Virus record (IMG/VR): IMGVR_UViG_3300013125_000002
Direction: 5' to 3' (one strand)
From: a virus
Length of the DNA stretch: 64,000 nucleotides
Shown piece by piece: positions 24,301 to 57,321 of this stretch. Each line of letters begins with the position of its first letter. The first letter of the stretch is position 1. The position numbers were made by a program, and so were the translations under genes. A model generated the notes under the pieces. It had not been told where the DNA came from. It did not search any database and saw nothing but the letters and a program-made list of their open reading frames with translations.

Positions 24301-24999
24301 CTGATCAATAGGAAACTCTTTGGCCGGCTTGACTCGCTGACCCGATGCCCGCTGCTGTCGGTACTCTTCCTTCAGCCACTCCTTGAAGTTCTGCTTGAAG
24401 AATGGACTTGGGACCCAGCTACCTGTTTGCTCTGGAAACCGATTGAACGGACTCTCGGCATGGTAGCGAATCGACATGCGCCCACTCGGAGAATCGATCC
24501 CCGACTGGCCTCGTTCCCTCACCTCAAACCAGGGTCTGCCAAAAGCGTCGTTGACCGTTGCAGTTGACGACCGACGACGCATCCAATTCTCAACAGCCTC
24601 GTAAGAGGGCAGATGAGTTACCGCATCTCGTGCTTTCGTACTACGGTGCGGAAGGATGATGAAGGGGCGCTTTGCTGAGGGCCTGACAACGAGCTTCAGC
24701 TCAGGCTTACCCTCTGCTGAGCGGATGATCGACACATCATCAGCACCCGACTTGAGGGCTTTCTCTCGTGCATGGTGGAACGCTTGCTCTGCTGTGTGCC
24801 CTCGAGCAACTGAATCCGAATGAGTGGTAACGGAGTGCTCATCTGAAACAGCAGAGGCTGCCCACCCATGGTTCTTTGGATGTCTGAGATCAGAGTACTT
24901 GTAGTTCCAGCGGTCGTTTTTCCACCACCGCAGAACATACTTCCCGCCTAGATGTTCCCCTCGGTGAGCTTTGACTAAATCGATCCAAAGAGCGAACAC
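21142..24999 (-). CDS. Polyvalent protein: sigma70-like + DNA topoisomerase IB + inorganic-pyrophosphatase-like (InPase) domains
   Basis: YDPQKGWRFSTY; RAG..GLTTL..GK..KQFRTY..LGH..SYIDP; IENKKGS..YGYV..GVDGDAVDV..FDEDKVMLGF. Confidence 0.85.
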   Translation of the reverse strand: MFALWIDLVKAHRGEHLGGKYVLRWWKNDRWNYKYSDLRHPKNHGWAASAVSDEHSVTTHSDSVARGHTAEQAFHHAREKALKSGADDVSIIRSAEGKPELKLVVRPSAKRPFIILPHRSTKARDAVTHLPSYEAVENWMRRRSSTATVNDAFGRPWFEVRERGQSGIDSPSGRMSIRYHAESPFNRFPEQTGSWVPSPFFKQNFKEWLKEEYRQQRASGQRVKPAKEFPIDQVRPTTTALEQGRLTWHRVLEPYQATVKRQTGQPWQRRGLRWVRKLKASEAEQLKLCANIIREHFGLAVLSAQRQLTLYNVFDPGNMARLLGYYGGPGRAKKIEIDPDSPTLRAVKRAVNSYDPQKGWRFSTYLGHCLWWEHFKETKAILDEVKERRKFISTVDHSGRTMDVLDQVSREELPPGHEEIVSEGAHAQSAEDDLIAREESLQEWSGRQEDRLAKYVASDTADHERQVTSFLALHELKEIKSPEQAQAFIVHWQSEGGDEFVEPFEREVEEPKVQKLSGSEKHSWVTMVKQHPLLTAAERAAILTLAPKGDLQNIRPFTEVTAELATKHTREFPRPPTESQLVDLFLSAHQKLSGLPEFQAMQAKLSPVAKAIQLLQSLSMNRLSKALDILRKAQKGTRSQHYKYWRREGVPGSYRYYYRDHVGNVIQGTNAPVGHAHYDKKLGTPQLHRDEPDPIQHPQFFDPRSGRKMNRAVPEHAEWNPEYNKAVPLRMWGARWRADPNDETSHFEHGYYDSDLRERDELKFNQDNRHFDQQLPKVRKFYSSLMQSKQLAHRALGLMVALLDQAYMRAGRKIHEEERGTIGLTTLKVGNVKIKGNMATFSYVGKLGVDQQQVVVLDPKSMSILQELTLAEGKKRTDYLFSVPVRRGSQVKFQEIGYNKLRRTLATLGVTPKQFRTYHGTEIFSRAFERLLQQYSQGRITAKTLSGVTEEAALESAKALGHYIGKGEDRKAHAATALRSYIDPVAVKSLWMNAIDPDMQKAHPLMGRIKYEGMNIAIENKKGSYREWYDPNAKEHGRTKMNYDYGYVSGSKGVDGDAVDVYMGPHKNSERVFVIHQMKKPDFTEFDEDKVMLGFDSPEEAKAAYLRQYDNPKFFGSLTEMSLDDFKQKIKDKGLRGKMLKSIDEPEPGDDDEVPAHSVVADPPDRFDHEVGFSEWLHSHPLHESEHEWQYLNQMAGGKLDLPNPETDHEEPDDVDAEDELDSTDRSGPADESTPQSAWEEPAGDSEEQEAAANGGAPSEGEAVQPPGEGPLREDQSQVRSPSPT

Positions 25000-38112: not shown

Positions 38113-38463
38113 TCACAGTTTGAGACCGCTAGGCGACTGGGCACGAGGGGGTGACGTGGGAGTCGCTGATTTCTCAAACTGTGATCTCAGAACCATCAAA
38201 CCATCCTCGGTTGCTGGGATGGTCATGATTCTGAGAGCCGAGAACCCCGCCAGATGATAGTTGCTACCATCCTGGGTTCTCGCCCCCGACACCCCACCAC
38301 GAGGGTGAGGATCGTGAGCAGTAGCGGCGGCTGGTACTGCCCCAGCAATCACTCGGTTATGAACCGAGCAGGTCTCTTTCTCCATCCCACCGCAACAGTT
38401 GTCACCAAAGATGATCTTCAATGACAACTCAAGCACCGTACTCCCCTCTACTCTGAGTGTCAA
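38113..38463 (-). CDS. Hypothetical protein
   Basis: 116 aa, start overlaps upstream stop. Confidence 0.4.
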   Translation of the reverse strand: MTLRVEGSTVLELSLKIIFGDNCCGGMEKETCSVHNRVIAGAVPAAATAHDPHPRGGVSGARTQDGSNYHLAGFSALRIMTIPATEDGLMVLRSQFEKSATPTSPPRAQSPSGLKL

Positions 38464-38699
38464 CCATCTTTTTGTGAGAGTTGCCGACCGTGAGAGAGCC
38501 CTTCAAGATACCATAGGAAATCACGACGGGGGACTGTCCCCTGACACTTCTTGCACTGATACCGTCGGTCTCGAATGGGCTGGCCAGGGGCAAGAGGTAG
38601 AGGAACAAACTCATGGGGAGCTTGACAGCCACGGAGTCTCTTTCGATTCTCCTCAGCTTCCTTGAAGACTGCTTTGATCCCGTCGAGTGTATCCGACAT
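38460..38699 (-). CDS. Small Cys/His zinc-binding protein
   Basis: C..PHEF..YQCKKCQG; GGAGG RBS. Confidence 0.55.
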   Translation of the reverse strand: MSDTLDGIKAVFKEAEENRKRLRGCQAPHEFVPLPLAPGQPIRDRRYQCKKCQGTVPRRDFLWYLEGLSHGRQLSQKDG

Positions 38700-38749: not shown

Positions 38750-38929
38750 CTACTCCTCGAGATCTCGAGCCTTCAGTGTACCCCGCCCCTCATCGGCTTT
38801 GCAGGTCTGCACCGCCTTGATCACCATCTCACCAACCTTCTTGTTGAGTGCCTCGACGAACTCTGCTGAAGTCCGCAGCTGGGCAACCTTGACCAGCTCC
38901 TTCACCTTGCTGACAACAACCAGAATCAT
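38750..38929 (-). CDS. Bacterial-type histone-fold protein (Bd0055-like), 59 aa, absent from ORF track
   Basis: MILVVVSKVKELVKVAQLRTSAEFVEALNKKVGEMVIKAVQTCKADEGRGTLKARDLEE; AGGAGAG RBS; RxTLxxRD clamp. Confidence 0.85.
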   Translation of the reverse strand: MILVVVSKVKELVKVAQLRTSAEFVEALNKKVGEMVIKAVQTCKADEGRGTLKARDLEE

Positions 38930-38957
38930 GGAACTCTCCTTTGTGGGCTCCTACTTT

Positions 38958-38989
38958 TATAATACGAATGAAGGGGCTTTCAGAGACAC
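38958..38989 (-). promoter_or_regulatory. Phage-specific promoter motif copy 1
   Basis: GTGTC-N16-TTCGTATTATA, same spacing in three intergenic copies. Confidence 0.7.
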
Positions 38990-39059
38990 ATCGAGAGGCA
39001 CTTTTTACTGAAGCAACAGAGAGCGTGCGGTACCGCACGTTAAGGGGAGAGTTCTAGAA

Positions 39060-39767
39060 TCAGGCTGTACGTCGATGCAGGTCCAGGAAGAGGTCGGAAG
39101 GTTCGATGGACAGGATGCGTGCTGCCAGACCTTCCACAGCACTCCTACGCTGCTCTGGTGTGTCTCTATCGACATCCCAGGGCATATCAAGAATCGTGAC
39201 CCCCTGCTGACGCAGAACCGCCACCATGTGGTCAATCTCTCGGTCAAGCATCTTGAGGTACTCGAGGTCGATGCCCCTCTCACACTGCCGACCAGTCTGG
39301 TTCTCCATGCGCCTGCTGATACGACGATTGCAGGTTTCAGGATCAACAAGCACCCGCACGCAAACCGTTGGCAAAAGAACCGAAGCAGTCATGGCATGGT
39401 AGATCGACTGATAGGTTGCAAATTCTCGCTCTGACATGAGACCCATCGTCCGCTGTAGCCGTGCGAAGGCAGTGTCCCCGTAATAGCTGCGGTCCAGAAC
39501 AGCACAGCCCTTCATCTGCATCGCATGCCACTGAGCTAGCTGGTGCATCCGAAAGCGCAGACCAAGAAGATGAAGCTGCATGGTGAGAGACCAACGATTT
39601 GGGTCGCTGTAGTAGTCCGCGAGATAGGGGTTTGCTCCCGCCCTCTCATCAGGCTCTTTCAGAGTGAGGGTTGTCGGTCCTAAGGCAGCCCCTAGTTCAG
39701 CAGAGAGTGTTGACTTGCCCGCTCCGATCAAACCTTCTACAGCAATCACTGGCCGGCTGTCTCTCAT
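39060..39767 (-). CDS. Deoxynucleoside kinase
   Basis: IAVEGLIGAGKSTL P-loop, EP, LDRSYYGD, RISRR lid. Confidence 0.9.
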   Translation of the reverse strand: MRDSRPVIAVEGLIGAGKSTLSAELGAALGPTTLTLKEPDERAGANPYLADYYSDPNRWSLTMQLHLLGLRFRMHQLAQWHAMQMKGCAVLDRSYYGDTAFARLQRTMGLMSEREFATYQSIYHAMTASVLLPTVCVRVLVDPETCNRRISRRMENQTGRQCERGIDLEYLKMLDREIDHMVAVLRQQGVTILDMPWDVDRDTPEQRRSAVEGLAARILSIEPSDLFLDLHRRTA

Positions 39768-41160: not shown

Positions 41161-41192
41161 TATAATACGAAGATGACCTATCCGTCGGACAC
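41161..41192 (-). promoter_or_regulatory. Phage-specific promoter motif copy 2
   Basis: GTGTC-N16-TTCGTATTATA. Confidence 0.7.
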
Positions 41193-41754: not shown

Positions 41755-41978
41755 AAACCCTGAAGCCTTTCAGCCCACTGCTCCATAGCTCGCATCGCTA
41801 ATTGCAGATCAGTGAACTGGGCGTCGAGGGTCAATGTCCACTCGGGGTGCTTGACGATCCCCCGATACTTGATCCCGTCTCCGTACCAAGGTTGCACAAA
41901 AAGAGTCAGAGTAGCAACCCTAGCAATCCATGGTAGCTGGCCAACACCAGTAGGTTGCTGCCAGTCCAGCTTGGCCAC
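41721..41978 (-). CDS. Hypothetical protein (3' end overlaps tRNA-Ser)
   Basis: 85 aa, start abuts HNH stop. Confidence 0.45.
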   Translation of the reverse strand: MAKLDWQQPTGVGQLPWIARVATLTLFVQPWYGDGIKYRGIVKHPEWTLTLDAQFTDLQLAMRAMEQWAERLQGLEGAAMVAKPA

Positions 41979-42487
41979 TATGGCACCAACTCAGCGGTCC
42001 AGTACTCTCGCCACTCGACAGGAATCGAGTCCACCTCCCGCAGAGCCACATTGAAGACAGGAACCCATGTCGGTCTCACAGGCTGTGCCCGAAGGGTCAT
42101 TCCTGCCTCACGAAGAGTCAGGTCAGCCTTCTTGTGGTTGCAGCTCTGGCAAGCCATGACGATGTTCTCCCACTCGGTCTTGCCACCCCGAGACTTCGGG
42201 ATGACGTGATCGAAGGTCAGAACTACATCCTTGCCATGGGCTCCACAGTACTGGCAGCGGAACCTATCCCGGGCGAGGACATTCTGACGAGAGAACTTGA
42301 TCCTCTTCTTCTTGGCGTCGATGGCATGCGTGATCCTCACAACCGCCGGCATGCCGACGTTGAAGTGAACCTCACGCCCGTACTCCTCGAGCACCTCTAC
42401 CTTGTTCTTGGCAAGGTAGGCCATCGCCCGTTGCCAGGGCACAGTGTTGATCGGCTGGTACCCCTGATCTAAGACTAAGGTTTGCAC
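41978..42487 (-). CDS. HNH endonuclease (McrA-like)
   Basis: FSRQNVLARDRFRCQYCG..TFDHVIPKSRGG..WENIVMACQSCNHKK; start set at GTG of MQTLVL. Confidence 0.9.
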   Translation of the reverse strand: MQTLVLDQGYQPINTVPWQRAMAYLAKNKVEVLEEYGREVHFNVGMPAVVRITHAIDAKKKRIKFSRQNVLARDRFRCQYCGAHGKDVVLTFDHVIPKSRGGKTEWENIVMACQSCNHKKADLTLREAGMTLRAQPVRPTWVPVFNVALREVDSIPVEWREYWTAELVP

Positions 42488-42529
42488 GAGATCACCTGTG
42501 AACAGTTGGTCATGGTCGATTGTACCAGA

Positions 42530-42604
42530 TAGAGCGGGTCGGATTCGAACCGACACTGTCCGGAGTTTGAAGCCGGGGCCTCCTACCCGTTGGGCTACCG
42601 CTCC
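42530..42604 (-). tRNA. tRNA-Leu(CAA), short variable loop
   Basis: Cloverleaf, loop TTCAAAC, 31:39 mismatch. Confidence 0.75.
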
Positions 42605-42608
42605 ATAA

Positions 42609-42684
42609 TACCAGGGATGGGATTCGAACCCACACTGCCGAGATCCTTAGTCTCGTGCCTCCTACCAAGTTGGGCTACCCTGGC
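42609..42684 (-). tRNA. tRNA-Leu(AAG), short variable loop
   Basis: CGAGA-CTAAGGA-TCTCG. Confidence 0.85.
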
Positions 42685-42688
42685 ATAG

Positions 42689-42762
42689 TCGGGATGACTG
42701 GATTTGAACCAGTGACCTCTTGGACCCCATCCAAGCGTTCTTCCAGGCTGAACTACATCCCG
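42689..42762 (-). tRNA. tRNA-Pro(GGG)
   Basis: CTTGG-ATGGGGT-CCAAG. Confidence 0.9.
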
Positions 42763-42766
42763 TTAG

Positions 42767-42840
42767 TACCCCCGACGCGGCTCGAACGCGCACTTGATCT
42801 CCTTTTAGGGGAGAGCCTCTTCCTCTTGGGCTACAGGGGT
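42767..42840 (-). tRNA. tRNA-Leu(UAA), short variable loop
   Basis: TCTCC-CCTAAAA-GGAGA. Confidence 0.8.
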
Positions 42841-42846
42841 AGAAAC

Positions 42847-42878
42847 TCCCACCTCTGCCAGCGATAACAGAGGTGGGA
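42847..42878 (-). terminator. Hairpin after Ro60 gene (terminator or processing stem)
   Basis: TCCCACCTCTG...CAGAGGTGGGA. Confidence 0.5.
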
Positions 42879-42885
42879 TCAGAAC

Positions 42886-44538
42886 TTACTGCTTGGCGAA
42901 TTCGCTGATCAGGTTAGGTGCTGCTGTGTCAAACCCGACCACATCCAGCATCCCTGCGTCATCAGGATCAGCAATCGTGAAGTTGTTGGCTACCATCCCC
43001 ACGACTACAAGCTTGGCTGGAATGCCCATCTTCTGCCGATATTGCTGAAGAGCCTGCACCGGCTGAATCTCCCCAGCCCACGTCTCCGAGTCAGTGTAGA
43101 TCTCGAAGAGGTCAACTGGGATCTTGTGCTTTGCTGCATCCAACATTGGCAGCGCACAATCAGTACCACCGAATGACAGCCTCTCCGTGTACCGACAGAT
43201 GTCGTCGAGCCTCATCGTGGGGCTGATCTTCAGCGTCGTGATTGCATTACCTTCGTACCCAAGGCCATGCAATGATGCTCTGCCGCTGGTGAAGCCCTTG
43301 ATCACCCACTGCTGCTCCACCCGTGCCCTCACCATCGCCATTGCTGACGAAGCTACTCGAGGTGTCAGTCCCATAACTCCTGCCACCATCCCACCACCCA
43401 TCGACCCCGAGACATCGAGTGCCAGGTAATGACGCTTGCCAGTCGGCTCCACAGCCCAGAAGGACACGTAGAACGACTCGTTGAGAGCGTCAACTACCTG
43501 CTGGACCAGGTCCCAGGTATTGCTGCCCCGAAGCCCATGACCCGCCGAGTAGGTCAGCATCGCTGTCAGCACCTGGATCGGATGCACCCTTGCCTTCTTG
43601 AGCTGCTCCAGATCGACCAGTCGCTTCGCCACCTCACCAACTGCTAATGCCATTGGCTTGAGCAGCCCAACCCGCGTCATGGTAGCCAGGTTCCGCAGAA
43701 GAGCCGTCAGCCCCAGGCTAGGAAGCATCGCCTCCCAGACCTCGGCGTGATTCAGCATCTCCGTTGGAATCGCTTCCCGAGGCAACCGGTAGTCCTGGAT
43801 CAGCTTGACCATCTCCTTGACGCTGGTGATGGTCTTGGCCTTCTCGAACGCCCAGATGACTCGAGCTGCCTCCGGCACTGCACCAACCTCTGGTAGGTCG
43901 TTCTCCTTGCCCTTGACCATCCAGCGGACGACCGTCTGGTGGTCTGAAGAGCCTGGCTTGACGTGTGCCAGCCTAAGCACGTCTCGATGTGACCAGCCAT
44001 CACGGGCCTGGTACTTGACCGTCTGGTACGCCACATCCTTCGCCTGTTGCTCGTTGTACCAGCGAGCAATCGCCCGACGGGCTCCTGGACCCCAGCCACC
44101 GAAGGCCTGCATCGCCTCGCAAAAGTGGAAGAGGTGTGTTCCGATCCGGCAGACCTTCGGCAGAGCCTGGTAGGCTGCTTGCTTGGTCTCGACATTCCCA
44201 AGCTTGGCTGCCATCGCCAATGCAAAGATCGCCGGATCGTTCTTCGGTGCTCTTCCTGCATCGGAGATGTCAGTGATCAACTTGACCAGGCGAACGCCAT
44301 CAGCCTTGATGCACCGCTCGATGGCCTTGGCGTTCTCCTTGGTGAGCTTACGCTCGGTGGCATAGTAGCTCCCACCCTCACTCCCGAGGATCAGGAACCG
44401 CTGTGCCTGCACCCAGATGTCGACTGGGAAAGTGACTCCCCCTGCCGAGTTCTCCACCATGTCGTTCTCACGACCTGGGATCACCTCGTTCTGCGGAGTC
44501 TGCCGACGGTTGACGTGGGACGAGTACTGAACGGGCAT
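42886..44538 (-). CDS. rsr: Ro60/TROVE-domain RNA-binding protein with vWA domain
   Basis: ENSAGG..RFLILGSEGGSYY, VKYQARDGWSHRDVLRLAH, ALDVSGSM, GGTDCALPM, YTDSETW, MLDVVGFD. Confidence 0.95.
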   Translation of the reverse strand: MPVQYSSHVNRRQTPQNEVIPGRENDMVENSAGGVTFPVDIWVQAQRFLILGSEGGSYYATERKLTKENAKAIERCIKADGVRLVKLITDISDAGRAPKNDPAIFALAMAAKLGNVETKQAAYQALPKVCRIGTHLFHFCEAMQAFGGWGPGARRAIARWYNEQQAKDVAYQTVKYQARDGWSHRDVLRLAHVKPGSSDHQTVVRWMVKGKENDLPEVGAVPEAARVIWAFEKAKTITSVKEMVKLIQDYRLPREAIPTEMLNHAEVWEAMLPSLGLTALLRNLATMTRVGLLKPMALAVGEVAKRLVDLEQLKKARVHPIQVLTAMLTYSAGHGLRGSNTWDLVQQVVDALNESFYVSFWAVEPTGKRHYLALDVSGSMGGGMVAGVMGLTPRVASSAMAMVRARVEQQWVIKGFTSGRASLHGLGYEGNAITTLKISPTMRLDDICRYTERLSFGGTDCALPMLDAAKHKIPVDLFEIYTDSETWAGEIQPVQALQQYRQKMGIPAKLVVVGMVANNFTIADPDDAGMLDVVGFDTAAPNLISEFAKQ

Positions 44539-44578
44539 GTGACCCCTCCTTACCGGCCCTCACTAAGAGAGCAAAAAT

Positions 44579-44643
44579 GATGAGCAAGTTGTTGCCGCTA
44601 GGGTGGCTTCACCAAAGAGGTAACCTAGAAGCTCCGGCCCATC
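44579..44643 (-). ncRNA. Minimal Y-RNA-like gene 1
   Basis: GATGGGCCGG..GGTTAC..CTTGCTCATC bulged-helix Ro-binding motif, directly upstream of rsr. Confidence 0.7.
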
Positions 44644-44645
44644 GG

Positions 44646-44765
44646 TTCATCAGAACAGCTAGCGCCTCAGCGAGGTTGGTGATCCTTGGAGTGCCTTTCG
44701 GCCATATCTCAGCATTGGTAGATAACCAAAGATCATTCGGCCAAGGAGCTAGCTATTCCGATGAA
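44646..44765 (-). ncRNA. Y-RNA-like gene 2 within a long closing stem
   Basis: GGCCGAATGATC.TTGGTTATC..CCAAGGATCA..CTCGCT. Confidence 0.7.
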
Positions 44766-44811
44766 GTAATCCTCATATGTTCACAGTACGTCAGACTTGT
44801 CAACCACAAAG

Positions 44812-44885
44812 TGGCAGCAGCTGGTAACGATCCAGCAATCTTTCGGTTATGAGCCGAATGAGGAGACCATCTCCTCCCTGCTGCC
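44812..44885 (-). tRNA. tRNA-Met(CAU), atypical D arm and T loop
   Basis: TTCGG-CTCATAA-CCGAA; T loop ATCGTTA. Confidence 0.7.
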
Positions 44886-44890
44886 ATGGG

Positions 44891-44969
44891 TGCGAGGAGA
44901 GGGAATCGAACCCTCACGCCGAAGCGATAGCTCCTAAGGCTACTGCGTCTACCATTCCGCCATCCTCGC
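44891..44969 (-). tRNA. tRNA-Leu(UAG)
   Basis: GTAGC-CTTAGGA-GCTAT, V arm present. Confidence 0.9.
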
Positions 44970-44970
44970 A

Positions 44971-45048
44971 TGGTACCCCCGGCAGGACTTGAACCTGCAA
45001 GTCTCTCGGTTCGTAGCCGAGTGTCCTAATCCATTAGACGACGGGGGC
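44971..45048 (-). tRNA. tRNA-Arg(ACG)
   Basis: CTCGG-CTACGAA-CCGAG, CCA encoded. Confidence 0.92.
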
Positions 45049-45063
45049 GTAGGTAGTAGGCGG

Positions 45064-45135
45064 TTGGCCCAGTCGGATTTGAACCGACGACTCCCAGCTT
45101 GTAAGGCTAGTACTCTTCCACTGAGTTATGGGCCA
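45064..45135 (-). tRNA. tRNA-Val(UAC)
   Basis: CTAGC-CTTACAA-GCTGG; overlaps HNH stop. Confidence 0.85.
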
Positions 45136-45511
45136 AAACACACTTCTGCATTCTGTACCTAGCAACTTCTAATCGATGAGCTTCAGTGCATCGCACGCAA
45201 CGGCATGGTGCGGTTTCACTGCGGTATCTGGTGTCAGTCCCATGTGGGGAAAGACGCTGTAGTCGAGTAGCCTCTTTGTGACACTCCCCACACAACACCA
45301 CACACTTCTTCAACTCCAACTCCCGTCGTTGTTTGGACCAAGACCAAATTCGGTGAGACACTTTCTTGGTCGGGTCTTTGTGATGCACCTCTAGTTGATC
45401 CTCTGATCCGCACCCAACACATGGACCATGCTCTTTAATCCATGCATTACGGTTTTCTGACTTCCATCGGAGTTGGTATTGTTTACGTTCCTCTGGATCT
45501 TTGTAAGGCAT
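45107..45511 (-). mobile_element. Free-standing HNH homing endonuclease
   Basis: CVGCGS..LEVHHKDP..KCVVLCGECH, HGT..Y..CRC..C; ATG lies inside a tRNA-Val 5' half. Confidence 0.85.
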
Positions 45512-45538
45512 GCGCTCTTCCAGTTGAGCTAACCGCCC
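45501..45538 (-). pseudogene. 5' half of a disrupted tRNA-Val(UAC)
   Basis: GGGCGGTTAGCTCAACTGGAAGAGCGCATGCCTTACAA with no matching 3' half adjacent. Confidence 0.8.
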
Positions 45539-45705
45539 ACAGGACAATCCTGCTGCACGAGTGAAGGCTTGATCTCAACCTTCACACGCTGATGGAGAGT
45601 GAGCTTCTGGCACTTGCCCAGACACTTCAGGGGTACCTGATCCTTGTCGCTCCATCGCTCCCATCTCTGTACATTCCCACACTTCGTACACCTGAACTCT
45701 TCCAT
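45529..45705 (-). CDS. 58-aa zinc-ribbon protein (not in ORF track)
   Basis: MEEFRCTKCG...KCLGKC; GGAGAGG RBS. Confidence 0.6.
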   Translation of the reverse strand: MEEFRCTKCGNVQRWERWSDKDQVPLKCLGKCQKLTLHQRVKVEIKPSLVQQDCPVGG

Positions 45706-45720
45706 GATCCTCTCCTTGAG

Positions 45721-45794
45721 TGGTCGTGATAGGATTTGAACCTATGACCTTCTGGGTGTGATCCAGATGTGCTTCCAGGCTACACCACACGACC
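45721..45794 (-). tRNA. tRNA-Val(CAC)
   Basis: TCTGG-ATCACAC-CCAGA. Confidence 0.88.
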
Positions 45795-45799
45795 GATAG

Positions 45800-45872
45800 T
45801 GCTGCTGGGAGGAATTGAACCTCCGTGTGCCGATTCCGGAGACCGGTGCGTTGTCCACTACGCTACAGCAGC
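45800..45872 (-). tRNA. tRNA-Arg(CCG)
   Basis: CCGGT-CTCCGGA-ATCGG. Confidence 0.88.
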
Positions 45873-45876
45873 TCAA

Positions 45877-45948
45877 TACCCCGACCCAGAATCGAACTGG
45901 GACTTGCGGTTTAGGAAACCGCCGTGATCTCCATTTCACTATCGGGGC
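45877..45948 (-). tRNA. tRNA-Arg(CCU)
   Basis: GCGGT-TTCCTAA-ACCGC. Confidence 0.9.
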
Positions 45949-45949
45949 A

Positions 45950-46021
45950 CACCACCGGAAGGAATCGAACCCTCGTCTTCCGGGTAGAAACCGGAGGCCC
46001 TGTCCATTAGACGACGGTGGC
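45950..46021 (-). tRNA. tRNA-Arg(UCU)
   Basis: TCCGG-TTTCTAC-CCGGA. Confidence 0.9.
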
Positions 46022-46026
46022 ACTAG

Positions 46027-46094
46027 AGGCGCCGGAGCGAGTTGAACGCTCCTCCACGGTTTTGCAGACCGTGTTGCTCCCGGAACGCAGCGCC
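46027..46094 (-). tRNA. tRNA-Cys(GCA), truncated D arm
   Basis: ACGGT-CTGCAAA-ACCGT, U73, 68 nt. Confidence 0.8.
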
Positions 46095-46098
46095 ATAC

Positions 46099-46169
46099 AG
46101 CTGGGCAAGGGATGATCTTAGGCATTGGTCAGATTAGAAGTCTGGTAACCTATGATCTTCGGCTCAGCT
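46099..46169 (-). ncRNA. Minimal Y-RNA-like gene 3
   Basis: AGCTGAGCCGAAGATC.TAGGTTAC..CCTAAGATC..CTTGCCCAGCT. Confidence 0.7.
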
Positions 46170-46172
46170 CGG

Positions 46173-46240
46173 CAGGTCACCGGAGACTCGAACTCCGCAA
46201 GCTGGGTTTTGGAGACCCGGCCGTACCCTGTACGTGACCC
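46173..46240 (-). tRNA. tRNA-Trp(CCA), truncated D arm
   Basis: GGGT-CTCCAAA-ACCC, G73, 68 nt. Confidence 0.8.
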
Positions 46241-46387
46241 ACGATGACCTCTGATCGCACCCACTCAACGCTGCCCCTGCACCTCGGGAATACAGATGAG
46301 AAAGTAACGATCAACCGGTGTGCTCTGGCCGAGGTCTCCGCCAGCCGGTAGAGGCGCGGATGTCATGCCTGACTCGCCTTCCTCTAG

Positions 46388-46460
46388 AGCCGCCACCGAG
46401 AATCGAACTCGGCCTTTCAGTTTACCAAACTGATGTCCCGACCACGTGGACCTTGGCGGC
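46388..46460 (-). tRNA. tRNA-Thr(GGU)
   Basis: TCAGT-TTGGTAA-ACTGA. Confidence 0.88.
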
Positions 46461-46467
46461 AAAACTT

Positions 46468-46540
46468 TGGAGCCAGCGAGGATCGAACTCGCAACCTCTG
46501 CCGTGCAAAGGCAGCGCTCTCCCAATTGAGCTATGACCCC
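46468..46540 (-). tRNA. tRNA-Ala(UGC)
   Basis: CTGCC-TTTGCAC-GGCAG, G3:U70. Confidence 0.92.
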
Positions 46541-46547
46541 GAGTCAG

Positions 46548-46650
46548 TGGAATGGCCAGGAGTTGAACCCAGCTCCCCTTAGGCAGCTCCTGCAAGCCAC
46601 CCATCAGGGATCGCGCCAAGTGGTGCAGGCCACCCTCTCGCGACACCCCA
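46548..46650 (-). ncRNA. tRNA-like RNA with acceptor stem and T arm but no canonical D or anticodon arm
   Basis: GGGGTG/CATTCC stem, GGGTTCAACTCC T loop, long internal hairpin. Confidence 0.55.
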
Positions 46651-46656
46651 TAACAG

Positions 46657-46728
46657 TGGGCACTACTGGAATCGAACCAGTGGTCTCCTGCGTGTCGAGC
46701 AGGTGTCTTTCCATTCGACCAAGCGCCC
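46657..46728 (-). tRNA. tRNA-Val(GAC)
   Basis: CCTGC-TCGACAC-GCAGG. Confidence 0.88.
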
Positions 46729-46731
46729 ATT

Positions 46732-46804
46732 TACTCCCAACGGGGTTCGAACCCGTGATCTCCGGCTTGAAAGGCCAGCGACTTGACCGCTCGTCCATGG
46801 GAGC
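46732..46804 (-). tRNA. tRNA-Glu(UUC)
   Basis: CTGGC-CTTTCAA-GCCGG. Confidence 0.9.
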
Positions 46805-46808
46805 ATAG

Positions 46809-46880
46809 TGATCCTGGAGGGAGTCGAACCCTCATTTCCTGATCGAGAGTCAGGTTGCCTACCGTTAGCAAGACAGGACC
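46809..46880 (-). tRNA. tRNA-Glu(CUC)
   Basis: CCTGA-CTCTCGA-TCAGG. Confidence 0.85.
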
Positions 46881-46881
46881 A

Positions 46882-46957
46882 TGGAGCTGGCTATCGGACT
46901 TGAACCGATCACCTGCTGCTTACAAGGCAGCTGCTCTACCGGATGGGCTAAGCCAGC
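46882..46957 (-). tRNA. tRNA-Thr(UGU)
   Basis: GCTGC-CTTGTAA-GCAGC, CCA encoded. Confidence 0.92.
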
Positions 46958-46962
46958 ACGAG

Positions 46963-47034
46963 AGCCCTCATTCGGAATCGAACCGAATTCTCGGCCTTAC
47001 GAGAGCCGCGCGTCACCATTTACGCTTTGAGGGC
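46963..47034 (-). tRNA. tRNA-Thr(CGU)
   Basis: CGGCT-CTCGTAA-GGCCG. Confidence 0.88.
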
Positions 47035-47069
47035 ATGACTCACCAACTTTGACCCCTTCGTTGGTGATC

Positions 47070-47150
47070 GCGCAGCCTTTACCAGTCTAGCCTTTCGGCA
47101 GCAAGCCGGACGAATCCGACACGATCTTGAGATCATCAGGGGCCCTGCGC
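47070..47150 (-). ncRNA. Orphan multibranch structured RNA
   Basis: GCGCAG/CTGCGC closing stem enclosing UUCG- and GAAA-capped hairpins. Confidence 0.5.
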
Positions 47151-47152
47151 AG

Positions 47153-47227
47153 TACCACCGAGAGGATTTGAACCTCCAACCTCCTCGACCTGAACGAGGC
47201 GCCTCTACCAAATTGGGCTACGGTGGC
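47153..47227 (-). tRNA. tRNA-Leu(CAG), short variable loop
   Basis: CCTCG-TTCAGGT-CGAGG. Confidence 0.88.
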
Positions 47228-47233
47228 ATGTAG

Positions 47234-47307
47234 TCGAGGTGGTCAGATTCGAACTGACGTGCTCCTGCTCCCGAAGCAGGCGAGGGACCAGACTCCTCTA
47301 CACCTCG
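47234..47307 (-). tRNA. tRNA-Pro(CGG)
   Basis: CCTGC-TTCGGGA-GCAGG. Confidence 0.88.
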
Positions 47308-47312
47308 ATAAG

Positions 47313-47384
47313 AGCGAGTGGAGGGAATTGAACCCTCGACCAACTGGTTGGAAGCCAGTGACTCTGCCACTGAGTTACACTCGC
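47313..47384 (-). tRNA. tRNA-Gly(UCC)
   Basis: ACTGG-CTTCCAA-CCAGT. Confidence 0.92.
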
Positions 47385-47393
47385 AAAGATCAA

Positions 47394-47465
47394 AGTGACC
47401 GGAGGGAGTTGAACCCTCTCTTCAGGCTTGGGAAGCCCGCGTGCCTCCGTGAACACCCCGGTCAC
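47394..47465 (-). tRNA. tRNA-Gly(CCC)
   Basis: CGGGC-TTCCCAA-GCCTG. Confidence 0.85.
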
Positions 47466-47471
47466 AAGTTA

Positions 47472-47558
47472 GGGCCGCCAACGATGAGGACTGGACTGAT
47501 CTTTCAGTGAGTCGACGGCACTGATTGACCAGGGTTGATCTCATCATTGGCTAAGCCC
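47472..47558 (-). ncRNA. Orphan rod-shaped RNA
   Basis: GCCAATGATGAG/CTCATCGTTGGC stem with internal loops. Confidence 0.45.
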
Positions 47559-47560
47559 AG

Positions 47561-47644
47561 CGGAGAGCCTGGGAATCGAACCCAGCGGGTCTTTCGGCCC
47601 TCCCGCGCTTCCAACGCGGTTGCGCACCTTGCTTCTCGCTCTCC
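47561..47644 (-). tRNA. tRNA-Ser(GGA)
   Basis: CCGCG-TTGGAAG-CGCGG, long V arm, atypical D arm. Confidence 0.82.
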
Positions 47645-47652
47645 AAGATCAG

Positions 47653-47734
47653 CGGAAGGTGCAGGAATCGAACCTGCTGCGTCTTTCGGCGCTGATGGCT
47701 TCAAACCACTCCCGTACCTTACGGGTCACCTTCC
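47653..47734 (-). tRNA. tRNA-Ser(UGA), 7/5 or 8/4 fold
   Basis: GTGG-TTTGAAG-CCAT, long V arm, G73. Confidence 0.8.
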
Positions 47735-47805
47735 AGCTAACCGATCTCCTCTGAGTCACAAAGAGTGTAGTCCTTGCGATTGACCATACTCAGCGAGATC
47801 GGCAA

Positions 47806-47877
47806 TGCAGCTGCCGGGAGTTGAACCCGGGCCTCAACCTTGGCAAGGTCGCATGCGGCCACCAACACTTCAGCTGC
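47806..47877 (-). tRNA. tRNA-Gly(GCC)
   Basis: CGACC-TTGCCAA-GGTTG. Confidence 0.88.
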
Positions 47878-47878
47878 G

Positions 47879-47950
47879 TAGCGGGAAAAGGAGTTGAACC
47901 TTGTCCTCTGGGTTATGAACCCAGCGTGCAGCCACTACACTATTCCCGCA
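47879..47950 (-). tRNA. Initiator tRNA-fMet(CAU)
   Basis: 1:72 mismatch, three G:C pairs in anticodon stem (CTGGG-TTCATAA-CCCAG). Confidence 0.82.
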
Positions 47951-47951
47951 G

Positions 47952-48023
47952 CGGGCACGAAGGGGATCGAACCCTCCTCGGCGGATCGACAGTCCGCTGG
48001 CCTCACCAGATGCCTACGTGCCC
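47952..48023 (-). tRNA. tRNA-Asp(GUC)
   Basis: GCGGA-CTGTCGA-TCCGC. Confidence 0.88.
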
Positions 48024-48088
48024 ATTCACCGGCTTGTTCTGGGCTTAATAAGATGATCCCGGCAAACCGGCCAATCCAAGATCATCAG

Positions 48089-48170
48089 CGGAAGCTAGAC
48101 GAATCGAACGCCCGGTCTTTCGGCCGCCCTCGGGTTCGAGCCGAGTTAGGGACCCTCCCTGGTAGCTTCC
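48089..48170 (-). tRNA. tRNA-Ser(CGA), probable 8/4 allo-tRNA
   Basis: GGAAGCTA/TAGCTTCC 8 bp, CTCGG-CTCGAAC-CCGAG, long V arm. Confidence 0.8.
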
Positions 48171-48177
48171 AGAGCGC

Positions 48178-48274
48178 CGCCGCTTCATCGTCAAGGTCCT
48201 TGTCCAAGTTGATCAGACTCTTCCTCAGACCTCTTGGCCTTCAAAGGGCCGCGTTGGTCACGAATGAAGCAGCG
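48178..48274 (-). ncRNA. Orphan structured RNA
   Basis: CGCTGCTTCAT/ATGAAGCGGCG closing stem with internal hairpins. Confidence 0.45.
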
Positions 48275-48276
48275 AG

Positions 48277-48347
48277 TGGACCCACTGGGATTTGAACCCA
48301 GAATACAGCCATGCCGAGGCTGCGTGATCCCATTTCACTATGAGCCC
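48277..48347 (-). tRNA. tRNA-Ala(GGC)
   Basis: CAGCC-TCGGCAT-GGCTG, G3:U70. Confidence 0.88.
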
Positions 48348-48420
48348 GAGATGCTCCCCGCTTAGACTCACCTGCGCTGCTTTTGCCCGCTTCGGTAAAT
48401 CTGCGCTAGAGCAATGAGAT

Positions 48421-48549
48421 GAGTGAGCAAGGGGGAGAGTTGGATGTTTTAGTGTCCTTCCATTAGACGACAGAACCCGTGGGTCCCGCTGGGACTCGAA
48501 CCCAGATCACTCGCTTAGCAGGCGATAACCCAACTCAATCGGCCCACTC
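48421..48549 (-). ncRNA. yrlA: YrlA-type Y RNA (permuted tRNA-like domain)
   Basis: GGGCCGAT..GGTTATC, then T arm, capped acceptor-like hairpin, D arm, then CTTGCTC. Confidence 0.85.
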
Positions 48550-48551
48550 GG

Positions 48552-48623
48552 TGGAGTCGGAGGGAGTCGAACCCTCACCTCAGCGTTGCGAACGCCGCGT
48601 GCTCCCGCTAGCACTACGACCCC
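48552..48623 (-). tRNA. tRNA-Ala(CGC)
   Basis: CGGCG-TTCGCAA-CGCTG, G3:U70. Confidence 0.9.
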
Positions 48624-48630
48624 AAAAGAT

Positions 48631-48770
48631 CGAAGCAGGCAAGGGGTTGACCTGAGCGTTGAGATTGGATTCGAACCAACGTCTCCGGGTTTATTGGACC
48701 CGGCGCTCTACCTCTAAGCTACTCCTGTAGGGTTTGGCACAGGATAACTCAGATCATTCGGCTTGCTTCG
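48631..48770 (-). ncRNA. Y RNA with an unpermuted tRNA-like domain
   Basis: AGCCGAATGATCTGAGTTATC..CTCAGGTCA..CTTGCC enclosing D, anticodon-like and T arms in native order. Confidence 0.75.
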
Positions 48771-48771
48771 G

Positions 48772-48844
48772 GGCGGGGGAGGGGAGTCGAACCCCCTAAT
48801 GCCAGGGCCACAACCTGGTGCTTAGCCGTTTAGCTTCCCTCGCC
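48772..48844 (-). tRNA. tRNA-His(GUG)
   Basis: CCAGG-TTGTGGC-CCTGG, G-1:C73. Confidence 0.88.
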
Positions 48845-48849
48845 ATGAG

Positions 48850-48920
48850 TCGCTGGAGACAGAGTCGAACTGTCGTTTACCGGTTATCGGCCGATCGTTC
48901 TTCCGTTGAACTACCCAGCG
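48850..48920 (-). tRNA. tRNA-Ile(GAU)
   Basis: ATCGG-CCGATAA-CCGGT. Confidence 0.85.
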
Positions 48921-48928
48921 ATCTTTAG

Positions 48929-48999
48929 CTCCGAGACCGGGATTCGAACCCAGAAGTCGTGGTTAACAGCCACGCATGATTCCATTTCATCATCTCGGA
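48929..48999 (-). tRNA. tRNA-Asn(GUU) copy 1
   Basis: CGTGG-CTGTTAA-CCACG, U1:A72. Confidence 0.88.
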
Positions 49000-49014
49000 A
49001 TGATCCTACACTAG

Positions 49015-49088
49015 CGAGTCGGACAGGATTTGAACCTGTGTCAGGTGGGTTAACGGCCCACTGCTCAACCAGACTGAGCTACCGACCC
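49015..49088 (-). tRNA. tRNA-Asn(GUU) copy 2
   Basis: GTGGG-CCGTTAA-CCCAC, G1:C72. Confidence 0.85.
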
Positions 49089-49090
49089 AT

Positions 49091-49191
49091 GCGATGGGCA
49101 AAGAATGATGCTGGTGCCTCCATAGGCGATGCCCCATAGATTGGGGCATTCTGGAATCGAACCGGATAATCCAACACCAACGGCTCATCGT
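49091..49191 (-). ncRNA. yrlA: Compact YrlA-type Y RNA
   Basis: GAGCCGTT..GGATTATC, T arm, ATGCCCCA/TGGGGCAT hairpin, D-like arm, TTTGCCC. Confidence 0.75.
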
Positions 49192-49193
49192 AG

Positions 49194-49267
49194 TCGGGGA
49201 GACAGGATTTGAACCTGCGGCATCTAGCTCCCAAAGCTAGCGTTCTACCAGGCTGAACTACTCCCCG
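49194..49267 (-). tRNA. tRNA-Pro(UGG)
   Basis: CTAGC-TTTGGGA-GCTAG. Confidence 0.92.
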
Positions 49268-49270
49268 ATT

Positions 49271-49413
49271 TGCCCAAGTGAGCTTTACGTCGTGCATCTA
49301 CTCTAATCAGTGGATCTCAAGATGCAGCATGGGGTGATGTCTGGAGCTAGCACGACTTGCCGCCAGATCATGAGTCCCACCTAAGTCCTGAGTCACTGGA
49401 TCGGCCTTGGGCA
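49271..49413 (-). ncRNA. Orphan structured RNA (~143 nt)
   Basis: TGCCCAAG/CTTGGGCA closing stem, internal helices GACTCA, TCTGG/CCAGA, TGCATCT/AGATGCA. Confidence 0.5.
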
Positions 49414-49450
49414 TCCGATCTCGACTCCGTGGTTGCGGAGTCTTCACTGA

Positions 49451-49506
49451 GCATCAACAGCCGGCCTTACCCTACCCTACCGGAGGTGTACCGGATCAGT
49501 TGATGC
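49451..49506 (-). ncRNA. Orphan small structured element
   Basis: GCATCAAC/GTTGATGC stem enclosing a CCGG hairpin and GGTAGGGTAGGGTAAGG. Confidence 0.35.
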
Positions 49507-49508
49507 AG

Positions 49509-49582
49509 ATCCCCCAGTTGGATTCGAACCAACGACCTTCGGGTTCAAAGCCCGACGCTACCGCCAGCTGAGCTATGGGGGA
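49509..49582 (-). tRNA. tRNA-Gln(UUG)
   Basis: TCGGG-CTTTGAA-CCCGA. Confidence 0.88.
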
Positions 49583-49587
49583 AGAAG

Positions 49588-49660
49588 TGGAGCGAAGTGG
49601 AGTCGAACCACTGTATCGGCATTTTCAGTGCCGCGCCTTGTCCGCATCGGCCATCGCTCC
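49588..49660 (-). tRNA. tRNA-Phe(GAA)
   Basis: CGGCA-CTGAAAA-TGCCG. Confidence 0.88.
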
Positions 49661-49665
49661 ATGTG

Positions 49666-49736
49666 TGGACCCGGAGTGAATCGAACACTCACCCACCGGT
49701 TATGAGCCAGCTGCTCGACCTTCGAGCTACGGGTCC
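49666..49736 (-). tRNA. tRNA(CAU), probably Ile2 (lysidine)
   Basis: CTGG-CTCATAA-CCGG, GGACCCG acceptor. Confidence 0.75.
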
Positions 49737-49751
49737 ATCGACCATGATCAA

Positions 49752-49771
49752 CTATTCAGTTGTCAAGATCA
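49752..49771 (-). promoter_or_regulatory. rrn-type boxA-like antitermination element
   Basis: TGATCTTGACAACTGAATAG resembles boxA-containing rRNA leader/spacer sequences. Confidence 0.5.
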
Positions 49772-49834
49772 GCGAAGCACTGAGAAACGGTCTCAGCTCC
49801 CATCAGCAGGCAGCCTACTGATGCTTCCTTCTAG

Positions 49835-49906
49835 TTCCGGGACAAGGGTTCGAACCTTGATTGGCGGAGTCAGAGTCCGCTGTCCTGCCAATTGAACGAC
49901 CCCGGA
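49835..49906 (-). tRNA. tRNA-Gln(CUG)
   Basis: GCGGA-CTCTGAC-TCCGC. Confidence 0.92.
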
Positions 49907-50065
49907 TCAATGAATCAAATACCTCCAACCTCGACGTTGACTTTTACTCCAACGTCTCTTCCACCACCAGCGTTTTCTTGGTCCCCTTCCATGCACCTGA
50001 CCACAGTTGGAACAGCCACCTCTGAGAATGAACCGCATCCAACTTCGGTCAGGATCAGCCATCAG

Positions 50066-50138
50066 TGGGCTCGGACGGATTCGAACCGTCACCTCATCGG
50101 GTAAGAGCCGAGAATGCAGCCGTAACACCTCGAGCCCA
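50066..50138 (-). tRNA. tRNA-Lys(CUU)
   Basis: TCGG-CTCTTAC-CCGA. Confidence 0.85.
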
Positions 50139-50173
50139 GTACTTCCACGCCTGGATCAGTTCCTCAAGCATCG

Positions 50174-50249
50174 TGGTGCCTCCGGCAGGACTCGAACCTG
50201 CGTCTCGATGGGTAAAAGCCATGTGCGCTGGCCGCTGCGCCACGGAGGC
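50174..50249 (-). tRNA. tRNA-Lys(UUU)
   Basis: ATGG-CTTTTAC-CCAT, CCA encoded. Confidence 0.85.
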
Positions 50250-50302
50250 AATAGCTCTCGAACCAACCGGTGCATTTGAGCTTGTGCATGATCTTGCCTC
50301 CG

Positions 50303-50374
50303 TGGGTGGTCTAGGAGTCGAACCTAGATTTGCGGGGTTACGGCCCGGTGCTCTACCAGTTGAACTAACCACCC
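50303..50374 (-). tRNA. tRNA-Tyr(GUA), short variable loop; first tRNA of the operon
   Basis: GGG-CCGTAAC-CCC anticodon arm. Confidence 0.8.
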
Positions 50375-56410: not shown

Positions 56411-56767
56411 TCAGTCCTTCTTGTCCTGATCCTGTTGAGTCTCATCGACCACCAAGATCTGGACAGCCGCCATCACCTTGGAGATGAGTGCAGTCTTCAC
56501 CTCAATCACAGCGTCCTTCAGAGCGTTGTGCATGGCCGTGTAGATCTTGCCATCGAACCGCTTTTTCATCTCCTCATAGACCCCAGTGCAGTAGTCAGAG
56601 ACGAGCTGCTCGAAGCTCACCCGCACCCGCTTCTGAATCTCCTCCGCAAGGTCCTGGCGAAGAGTAATCTTGGTGATTCGACCCCAGCTGTCATGTGCTG
56701 TCTGACCGACTGTCTCCTCCACGTACTTCTTGACGGTCTCACCGATCTCCCTGGTGTAGTTCCTCAC
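56411..56767 (-). CDS. Hypothetical helical protein
   Basis: 118 aa; start uncertain. Confidence 0.5.
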   Translation of the reverse strand: MRNYTREIGETVKKYVEETVGQTAHDSWGRITKITLRQDLAEEIQKRVRVSFEQLVSDYCTGVYEEMKKRFDGKIYTAMHNALKDAVIEVKTALISKVMAAVQILVVDETQQDQDKKD

Positions 56768-57289
56768 CTCGAACTTGATATCGTTCTCAAAGTGGTCACG
56801 GACGAAGGCTTTGGCGACCGACCTCCTTTGTGAAGATCAGCTTCCGATCCAACGTTCCATCAGACGTTTCTTCCGTCCGACTTAACACCCCTCGCGAGGC
56901 CTGCCATTCTCCCGTTCAAGCAAACATTCCGACAACTAATCAAGCCTCAATCCGTTCGGACTTCTCAACGTCCCAGCGGCCGTCCCTTCCTTCACCACCT
57001 AGCTCCATTCGCACGTTCTCACCAACACACCACCGCGCCCTTATTCCTATCTAGTGATCTCGCAAACCTGCGCGCCGACAACCAACCTGTCCGCTACCTC
57101 TCGCCCGATCCTATCGCCCTTCGCTATTCCGAGCACTCAGACCGACCTACTGGCATTCTGTCCGTTGCTCGATCACAACCCCGCACTAGCGAACCTGCCA
57201 CCATTCCGTCGAACTGGCCCTCCAACAAACCGGCCGACACAGCCTCCTACCTCCAATCGCCCAATCCCGGCCACGTACTCCATCACCCT

Positions 57290-57321
57290 TATAATACGAA
57301 TGGCCCCTCCCTCTCGGACAC
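57290..57321 (-). promoter_or_regulatory. Phage-specific promoter motif copy 3
   Basis: GTGTC-N16-TTCGTATTATA. Confidence 0.7.

Follow-up and report, generated by a model that had tools for sequence, protein, structure and literature searches.

A phage gene for a minimal α3-truncated histone-fold protein of the HBb/Bd0055 type and its possible role as a nucleoid-associated protein

Whether a phage carries a histone of the kind known from Bdellovibrio, and what it would do with it, is the question raised by a very short gene in a 64,000-nt stretch of viral DNA (IMG/VR record IMGVR_UViG_3300013125_000002), the whole of which is called the window here. An earlier note, made from the letters of the sequence, had described a 59-aa open reading frame (ORF) with an AGGAGAG ribosome-binding site and had proposed that it encodes a histone like Bd0055 (HBb). 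The ORF and its ribosome-binding site were found as described, together with the other signals and genes around them (Table 1). At 59 aa the gene lies just under the default ORF cut-off of 60 aa, and its absence from the ORF track had been explained correctly in this way.

Table 1. Features of the histone locus and copies of the promoter-like motif in the 64-kb window.
Feature	Coordinates	Strand	Basis
Histone-fold coding sequence, 59 aa, stop codon included	38750..38929	minus	ORF list; ATG start, TAG stop
Shine-Dalgarno sequence AGGAGAG, 4 nt 5′ of the histone ATG	38934..38940	minus	Read from the sequence
Bipartite promoter-like motif GTGTC-N16-TTCGTATTATA, copy 1; last base 28 nt before the histone ATG	38958..38989	minus	Three exact copies in the window
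Motif copy 2; heads a run of small genes ending in the deoxynucleoside kinase gene	41161..41192	minus	Motif scan
Motif copy 3; no convincing ORF in the following 500 nt or so	57290..57321	minus	Motif scan
GC-rich hairpin CGTGCG-GTAC-CGCACG, terminator-like, with a weak T tract; between the kinase stop and the histone promoter motif	39024..39039	minus	Terminator scan and sequence
Deoxynucleoside kinase gene, upstream of the histone gene	39060-39767	minus	PF01712 (dNK), E 8.6e-33
Next downstream gene, 79 aa, one CxxC pair	38460..38699	minus	Gene calls on identical contigs

When the protein was compared by phmmer with all PDB sequences, HBb/Bd0055 (8fvx/8cmp) was matched with an E-value of 3.4e-9, residues 2-57 of the query aligning with residues 4-59 at approximately 45% identity, and further matches were obtained with HTkC of Thermococcus (9f2c, 9e-6) and HLp of Leptospira (9qt0, 0.025). 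The alignment to Bd0055 that had been made by eye was thus reproduced over nearly the whole length of the protein. Sixty-six relatives were found at E ≤1e-3 among 1.84 billion cluster representatives, the best of them with 64% identity, and a profile built from 39 relatives matched HBb (8e-21), HTkC (1e-19) and HLp (2e-17), the archaeal histones HMfA/B at about 1e-4, and also reached NF-YB. The protein itself gave no match to the Pfam families PF00808 (CBFD_NFYB_HMF) and PF09123 (DUF1931) at E-values up to 1 and was not recognised by PHROGs; eight of the 39 relatives match PF00808 and five match PF09123 at E ≤0.01.

The fold was then predicted with AlphaFold2 on the family alignment, and the model reached a pLDDT of 93.6, with helices at residues 6-15 and 22-45 and a one-turn helix at residues 54-56. 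The lack of a predicted histone fold had been named beforehand as a result that would speak against the proposal, and the opposite was obtained. In the Foldseek comparison with Bd0055 that had been suggested as a check, the top five matches of the model were all HBb entries (TM 0.88-0.91, rmsd 1.0 Å), followed by HLp and HTkC and then by classical histones and NF-Y/TAF proteins, all of them of the histone fold; the best HBb match had a TM of 0.91. A structure search of BFVD gave weak matches to proteins of uncultured phages (best E 0.03, TM 0.81-0.85). In the α3-truncated histones helix 2 is shortened and helix 3 has no more than 3-4 residues (Schwab et al., 2024, PMC11390915), and in the model helix 3 is formed by residues 54-56 and helix 2 by 24 residues. 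The RxTxxxxD motif (RD clamp) is also present, as R49, T51 and D56 within GRGTLKARD, and T51 is invariant across the 39 relatives. The identity of the protein and its assignment to the HBb-type histone fold are therefore held with near certainty.

The genome in which this gene lies was characterized by its other genes. The contig encodes, on the same strand as the histone, proteins of the head (the major head protein, phrog_752, E 1e-98), the portal and the tail, and all of the long ORFs with an assigned function are on the minus strand of the window. The major head protein shares 41-46% of its residues with its counterparts in Bacillus Herelleviridae, and the identical histone was found on contigs from lake metagenomes that reach 152 kb. 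Hence, the window belongs to a large, uncultured phage of lake water, with a genome of about 150 kb and a capsid distantly similar to that of Herelleviridae; the 64 kb analysed cover part of a genome that is 152 kb or longer, and the remainder may encode a partner histone or further DNA-binding proteins. A search of the six frames of the 64-kb window with the family HMM found no second histone-fold ORF, and a homodimer is therefore expected. The search matches, the model and the phage genes on the contig together bear out the central proposal of the earlier note, that of a phage-encoded histone-fold protein of the Bd0055 type.

Megablast of 18 kb against 50,697 GenBank phage records gave no nucleotide match, and tblastn of the histone against the same records, at E-values up to 10, gave none either, so that no copy was detectable in the cultured phages included there. 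Additionally, the window contains 45 co-oriented tRNA genes in one array (42528-50374, minus strand), with a full-length Ro60/TROVE gene (42886-44538) and an HNH endonuclease gene (41978-42556) inside or beside it, and a gene for a 1285-aa protein (21142-24999, minus strand), residues 1000-1140 of which match domains of minor head, virion and DarB-like polyvalent proteins.

Relatives with 55-70% identity, the closest to the histone, are encoded at the same place in related uncultured phages, where the portal gene follows a few kb downstream. The order shared by L010/L012, L007, L017, L018 and L019 is that of histone, KTSC-domain gene, cupin-like gene, one or two large genes and portal gene (38929, 37872, 35790 and 32905 for the histone, KTSC, cupin-like and portal genes of the window). 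The highest identity was that of L010/L012, an IMG/VR contig in which the histone is 70% and the kinase 71% identical and the synteny extends over at least 10 genes; the other relatives in the shared order are P0080 (67%), P0002 (63%), P0104 (60%) and P0097 (55%, present in 35 collection blocks). Other members of the family have different surroundings. P0004 has DNA polymerase A, RecA and sigma-like genes around it and stands in a series of small ORFs on the same strand, and the members in four other large IMG/VR phages (L013-L016, 168-196 kb) are found in unrelated contexts and elsewhere in the tree, their neighbours belonging to no informative families. In L019 (6980-10312) the portal gene carries an intein with a LAGLIDADG domain and is followed by an ART-PolyVal protein.

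The phylogeny that the earlier note had called for was obtained as a maximum-likelihood tree of 147 singlets, in which all six synteny-checked phage rows fell into one 36-row group, apart from the rows named as Elusimicrobiota, on a branch that is weak (SH-aLRT 74-78) and drawn from only 59 columns. Between the histone of the window and its orthologue in L010, pN was 0.20 and pS 0.78 (saturated), values that indicate strong purifying selection. The syntenic phage relatives, together with this saturated divergence at a pN of 0.20, point to an old and conserved phage gene, not to a recent capture from a host. The gene is a genuine one of the phage, kept under selection, and encodes a minimal α3-truncated histone-fold protein of the HBb/Bd0055 “bacterial dimer” type.

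Cellular matches were sought by a pattern scan in one genome per GTDB species, and the hits were confined to MAGs of Elusimicrobiota, Oligoflexales, Chlamydiae and a few others, with 36-51% identity (54% over a partial match of 35 residues). A homologue with 47% identity was also seen in L140 (CAYOEM010000013.1, 74 kb), a contig binned as a Polynucleobacter MAG, which could be phage DNA placed in the bin of its host, or else placed there wrongly. The histone looks inherited within the phage lineage and carries no signal of a host; the suggestion that the host belongs to a histone-bearing lineage was not upheld, the nearest relatives being those of syntenic phages and the full-length cellular matches reaching at most 51%.

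The conserved position of the gene, 5.8-8.3 kb upstream of the portal in five related phages, would suit a component of the virion, one that goes into the capsid with the genome and either condenses it there or accompanies the DNA into the cell, as the histones of Marseilleviridae do. Several unrelated small genes lie, however, between the histone and the head genes, and the motif in front of it is shared with the nucleotide-kinase operon, not with the head genes. The DNA in the capsids of tailed phages is packed at near-crystalline density, and such a capsid generally leaves little room for a stoichiometric protein. A place in the virion is accordingly considered quite improbable.

The expression signals were examined next to the gene and throughout the window. 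The histone ORF is the first gene 3′ of a copy of the bipartite motif GTGTC-N16-TTCGTATTATA, all three exact copies of which are on the coding strand. By chance 0.14 matches would be expected, even at a tolerance of three mismatches, and in 100 shuffled sequences three were never reached, in agreement with the claim that the gene comes first after a motif specific to the phage. The motif does not fit the sigma-70 consensus; the scan found no consensus promoter near the gene, and a stricter script scan found none anywhere in the 64-kb window. It is called promoter-like from its recurrence, its constant strand and its place before genes. When metagenome contigs were scanned for the exact pattern, mostly chance matches were returned. 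The region upstream of the histone in L010 (5900-5985) is diverged, with TAAAATGCCTCT present twice and TTTGTACTATAGG before the ribosome-binding site, and the exact motif of the window is absent from it. As for the third copy in the window, the region of 56767-57321 (minus strand) comprises this copy and the gap that follows it, precedes a 118-aa ORF at 56411-56767, and may be a leader or a non-coding RNA.

The 79-aa gene downstream of the histone is probably co-transcribed with it; it gave no match to a Pfam family and no BLAST match near the histone in the syntenic relative L012. Since the motif is common to the histone operon and to the operon that ends in the deoxynucleoside kinase gene, expression in the DNA-metabolism phase is suggested. 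The histone would then be made together with the genes of DNA metabolism and, given a promoter-like motif of its own and a strong ribosome-binding site, would be made in quantity.

The motif and the ribosome-binding site would equally serve a takeover of the host, in which the histone compacts the host chromosome or displaces the nucleoid proteins of the host and thereby shuts off transcription or replication; if the host has an HBb-type histone, mixed dimers with it might also be formed. The contact residues shared with HBb, described below, imply non-specific binding and would not distinguish phage from host DNA. This reading is nonetheless judged unlikely: the gene adjoins the head-morphogenesis module, its motif is common to a nucleotide-metabolism operon and does not lie in an obvious early take-over region, and the search for close relatives in cellular genomes yielded none, with full-length matches of at most 51%.

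To relate the protein to what is known of DNA binding, its residues were mapped onto HBb through the phmmer alignment. The HBb residues with the most DNA contacts are N22, R57, S9, T53, T8, S24, K10, K12, K52 and K16 (PMC11317129, Hu et al.). Seven of the ten are kept, S9, K10, K12 and K16 corresponding to S7, K8, K10 and K14 of the window protein, and S24, T53 and R57 to S21, T51 and R55; the three changed positions are N22 (R19), T8 (V6) and K52 (G50). The three lysines of helix 1 (K8, K10 and K14) are 89-97% conserved among the relatives. The clamp of HBb, R51-D58 reinforced by D49 (PMC11317129), has its counterpart in R49-D56 with D46. Two features were counted against the preferred explanation, namely that the lysine of the loop 2 “KT” (HBb K52) is a glycine and that the net charge is only +2.

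The mode of assembly was judged from the interface positions of the tetrameric histones. In HLp the face-to-face tetramer is stabilised by R49, N53 and R55 (HLp numbering; PMC12701072), and the residues of the window protein at these positions are T42, D46 and R49, so that the clamp arginine alone is kept. A face-to-face histone was ruled out by T42 and D46. Since the tetramer signature of the face-to-face histones is absent, a DNA-bending homodimer is the best reading, and by analogy with HBb the protein is probably a DNA-binding dimer, an assignment made with good confidence.

Additionally, the variation within the putative phage clade was analysed. Residues K8, K10, K14, R19, S21, T51, K53 and R55 are kept in 86-97% of the 36-row phage group; the cellular relatives mostly have G, K or R at position 53, E or Q at position 55 and R or K at position 42, the last being the face-to-face signature. 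Most members of the clade carry an acidic C-terminal tail of 8-33 residues, with up to 16 D/E in 31 residues (P0059, P0086, P0047, P0002 and P0077 among the carriers), and with this tail the whole protein comes close to neutral in spite of its more basic core. The tail is absent from the window protein and its two nearest relatives. In about one third of the clade (P0003, P0016, P0020, P0045 and others) the clamp residues R49 and D56 are replaced together by M and H, as if the two contacting positions had changed in concert; the window protein keeps R and D.

These acidic tails could bind proteins, and Schwab et al. have cautioned that not all prokaryotic histone-fold proteins need organise genomes. 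The protein could accordingly be a protein-protein module without a direct role on DNA, as TAFs and NF-Y are, for example a regulator acting on a phage or host transcription factor. Such a role is considered very improbable: the DNA-contact positions of HBb are nearly invariant across the putative phage clade, and this is hard to explain without DNA binding.

How an HBb-type dimer acts on DNA has itself been disputed. One set of crystals suggested straight, coated filaments, and later crystal, solution and molecular dynamics (MD) data on HBb showed a DNA-bending dimer (PMC11317129; PMC11390915). The coating of DNA by Bd0055-type histones, which the earlier note took as established, is part of this dispute. 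On the coating model a protective role was weighed, in which filaments of the histone hide the phage DNA from restriction enzymes, CRISPR nucleases or DNA sensors. It draws on one HBb-DNA crystal form and the model of Hocher et al., with dimers arranged along straight DNA (PMC11390915, PMC11317129), and on the more basic core of the putative phage clade (+4.1 against +2). Later solution and MD data on HBb favour bending by a single dimer (PMC11317129), and the core of the window copy has a charge of only +2. A coat would, moreover, require the protein in stoichiometric amounts. A protective coat is thus given no better a chance than the takeover of the host, and is likewise thought unlikely.

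The explanation that we prefer, by a modest balance of probability when taken as a whole, is that of an HBb-type dimer which bends the phage DNA and serves as the phage's own nucleoid-associated protein. According to the folds of HBb and other histones, the protein would form a homodimer by the histone handshake, and the dimer would bind the backbone and the minor groove without sequence preference, as HBb does. The predicted contacts are S7, K8, K10 and K14 at the start of helix 1, R19, T20 and S21 in loop 1, T51 in loop 2 and R55 in helix 3. The solution and MD data on HBb suggest that the DNA would be bent and compacted in the manner of HU/IHF, rather than wrapped, and the DNA acted on would be that of the phage, replicating or soon to be packaged. 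The part of this explanation that concerns the role on phage DNA in vivo is put forward tentatively, at slightly less than an even chance.

A more elaborate form of the same idea was also considered, in which the histone is the core of a “phage chromatin”: it would load selectively on the phage's own, possibly base-modified, DNA during replication and then either shield it from the nucleases of the host or enter the capsid with it, the acidic tails and the M/H clamps of the relatives tuning the loading. This is regarded as a doubtful proposal, somewhat less probable than the takeover of the host or the protective coat and a little more so than the virion component.

Phage histone-fold proteins similar to Bd0055 are already known computationally from 2024-2025. 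An HMM survey of IMG/VR describes Bd0055-like histone-fold proteins in Caudoviricetes (bioRxiv 2024.12.06.627149; hLife 2025, PMC13681535), with 84 bacterial-like proteins and a cluster named “BBVHFP” of predicted dimers (PMC13681535). As far as the text of that survey goes, the present analysis adds that the gene keeps its place upstream of the portal throughout a lineage whose head protein is Herelleviridae-like, that a promoter-like motif precedes it in the window, and that the relatives vary in their tails and in the M/H replacement of the clamp; the residue-level assignment to the dimer type is also new. These results do not change existing knowledge in kind. It was only in 2023-2024 that histones came to be recognised in bacteria, how they bind DNA is a matter of debate, and the copies in phages are known from computer surveys only. 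The locus offers a clean, minimal example of 59 residues, with a gene that has long been established in a line of large phages and is not a stray capture from a host. The motif and the natural variants, with acidic tails or the M/H clamp, make up a compact system in which to ask what the histone fold does for a phage.

Among known phage proteins, TF1 of SPO1 is a small, abundant, dimeric DNA-bending protein of the HU type, from a large SPO1-like myovirus. It is proposed as a functional analogue of the window histone, the folds of the two being unrelated. An HU-type gene at the same position in Herelleviridae was sought, and the “DNA binding protein” encoded upstream of the portal in the Bacillus phage YungSlug, a distant relative in culture, proved to be SpoIIID-like. 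As this protein is not HU-like, the analogy with TF1 is left without positional support; no HU gene (PF00216) was found in the relative G001, the genome of which is 53% complete.

The “phage histones” of Schwab et al. (2024), such as A0A2E7QIQ9, resemble the window protein in being α3-truncated and encoded by tailed phages, but they have a C-terminal helical tetramerisation domain and lack RxTxxxD. Membership of this category was rejected, as the window protein ends three residues after the clamp aspartate and has the RxTxxxD motif. HLp of Leptospira perolatii (9qt0) and HTkC of Thermococcus kodakarensis (9f2c) share the α3-truncated fold (TM 0.82-0.84); both are tetramers that wrap DNA, and the window protein differs from them in lacking the first two interface residues.

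The greatest likeness is to HBb (8fvx, 8cmp, 9ezz, 9f0e), which has 64 aa against 59 and with which the protein shares seven of ten DNA-contact residues and the clamp with its extra aspartate; the structures superpose with a TM of 0.91, and neither protein has the residues of the face-to-face tetramer. The window protein differs in a loop 1 that is one residue shorter, in a loop 2 that is one residue longer, and in lacking the short C-terminal loop after helix 3, its sequence ending in DLEE. Furthermore, HBb is encoded by a bacterium and the window protein by a phage. Bacterial dimer histones are by definition restricted to bacteria, and here the gene was found on a contig that carries the head, portal and tail genes of a phage. 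The viral counterpart, BBVHFP, consists of HBb-like singlets on metagenome contigs of tailed phages, predicted to be dimers, in which a C-terminal helix replaces the flexible loop of HBb (PMC13681535); the window protein has no C-terminal extension. An HBb-like fold encoded by Caudoviricetes was found in the present case, relatives of the protein are present in IMG/VR contigs, and, since the histone lies on a phage contig, it is grouped with BBVHFP.
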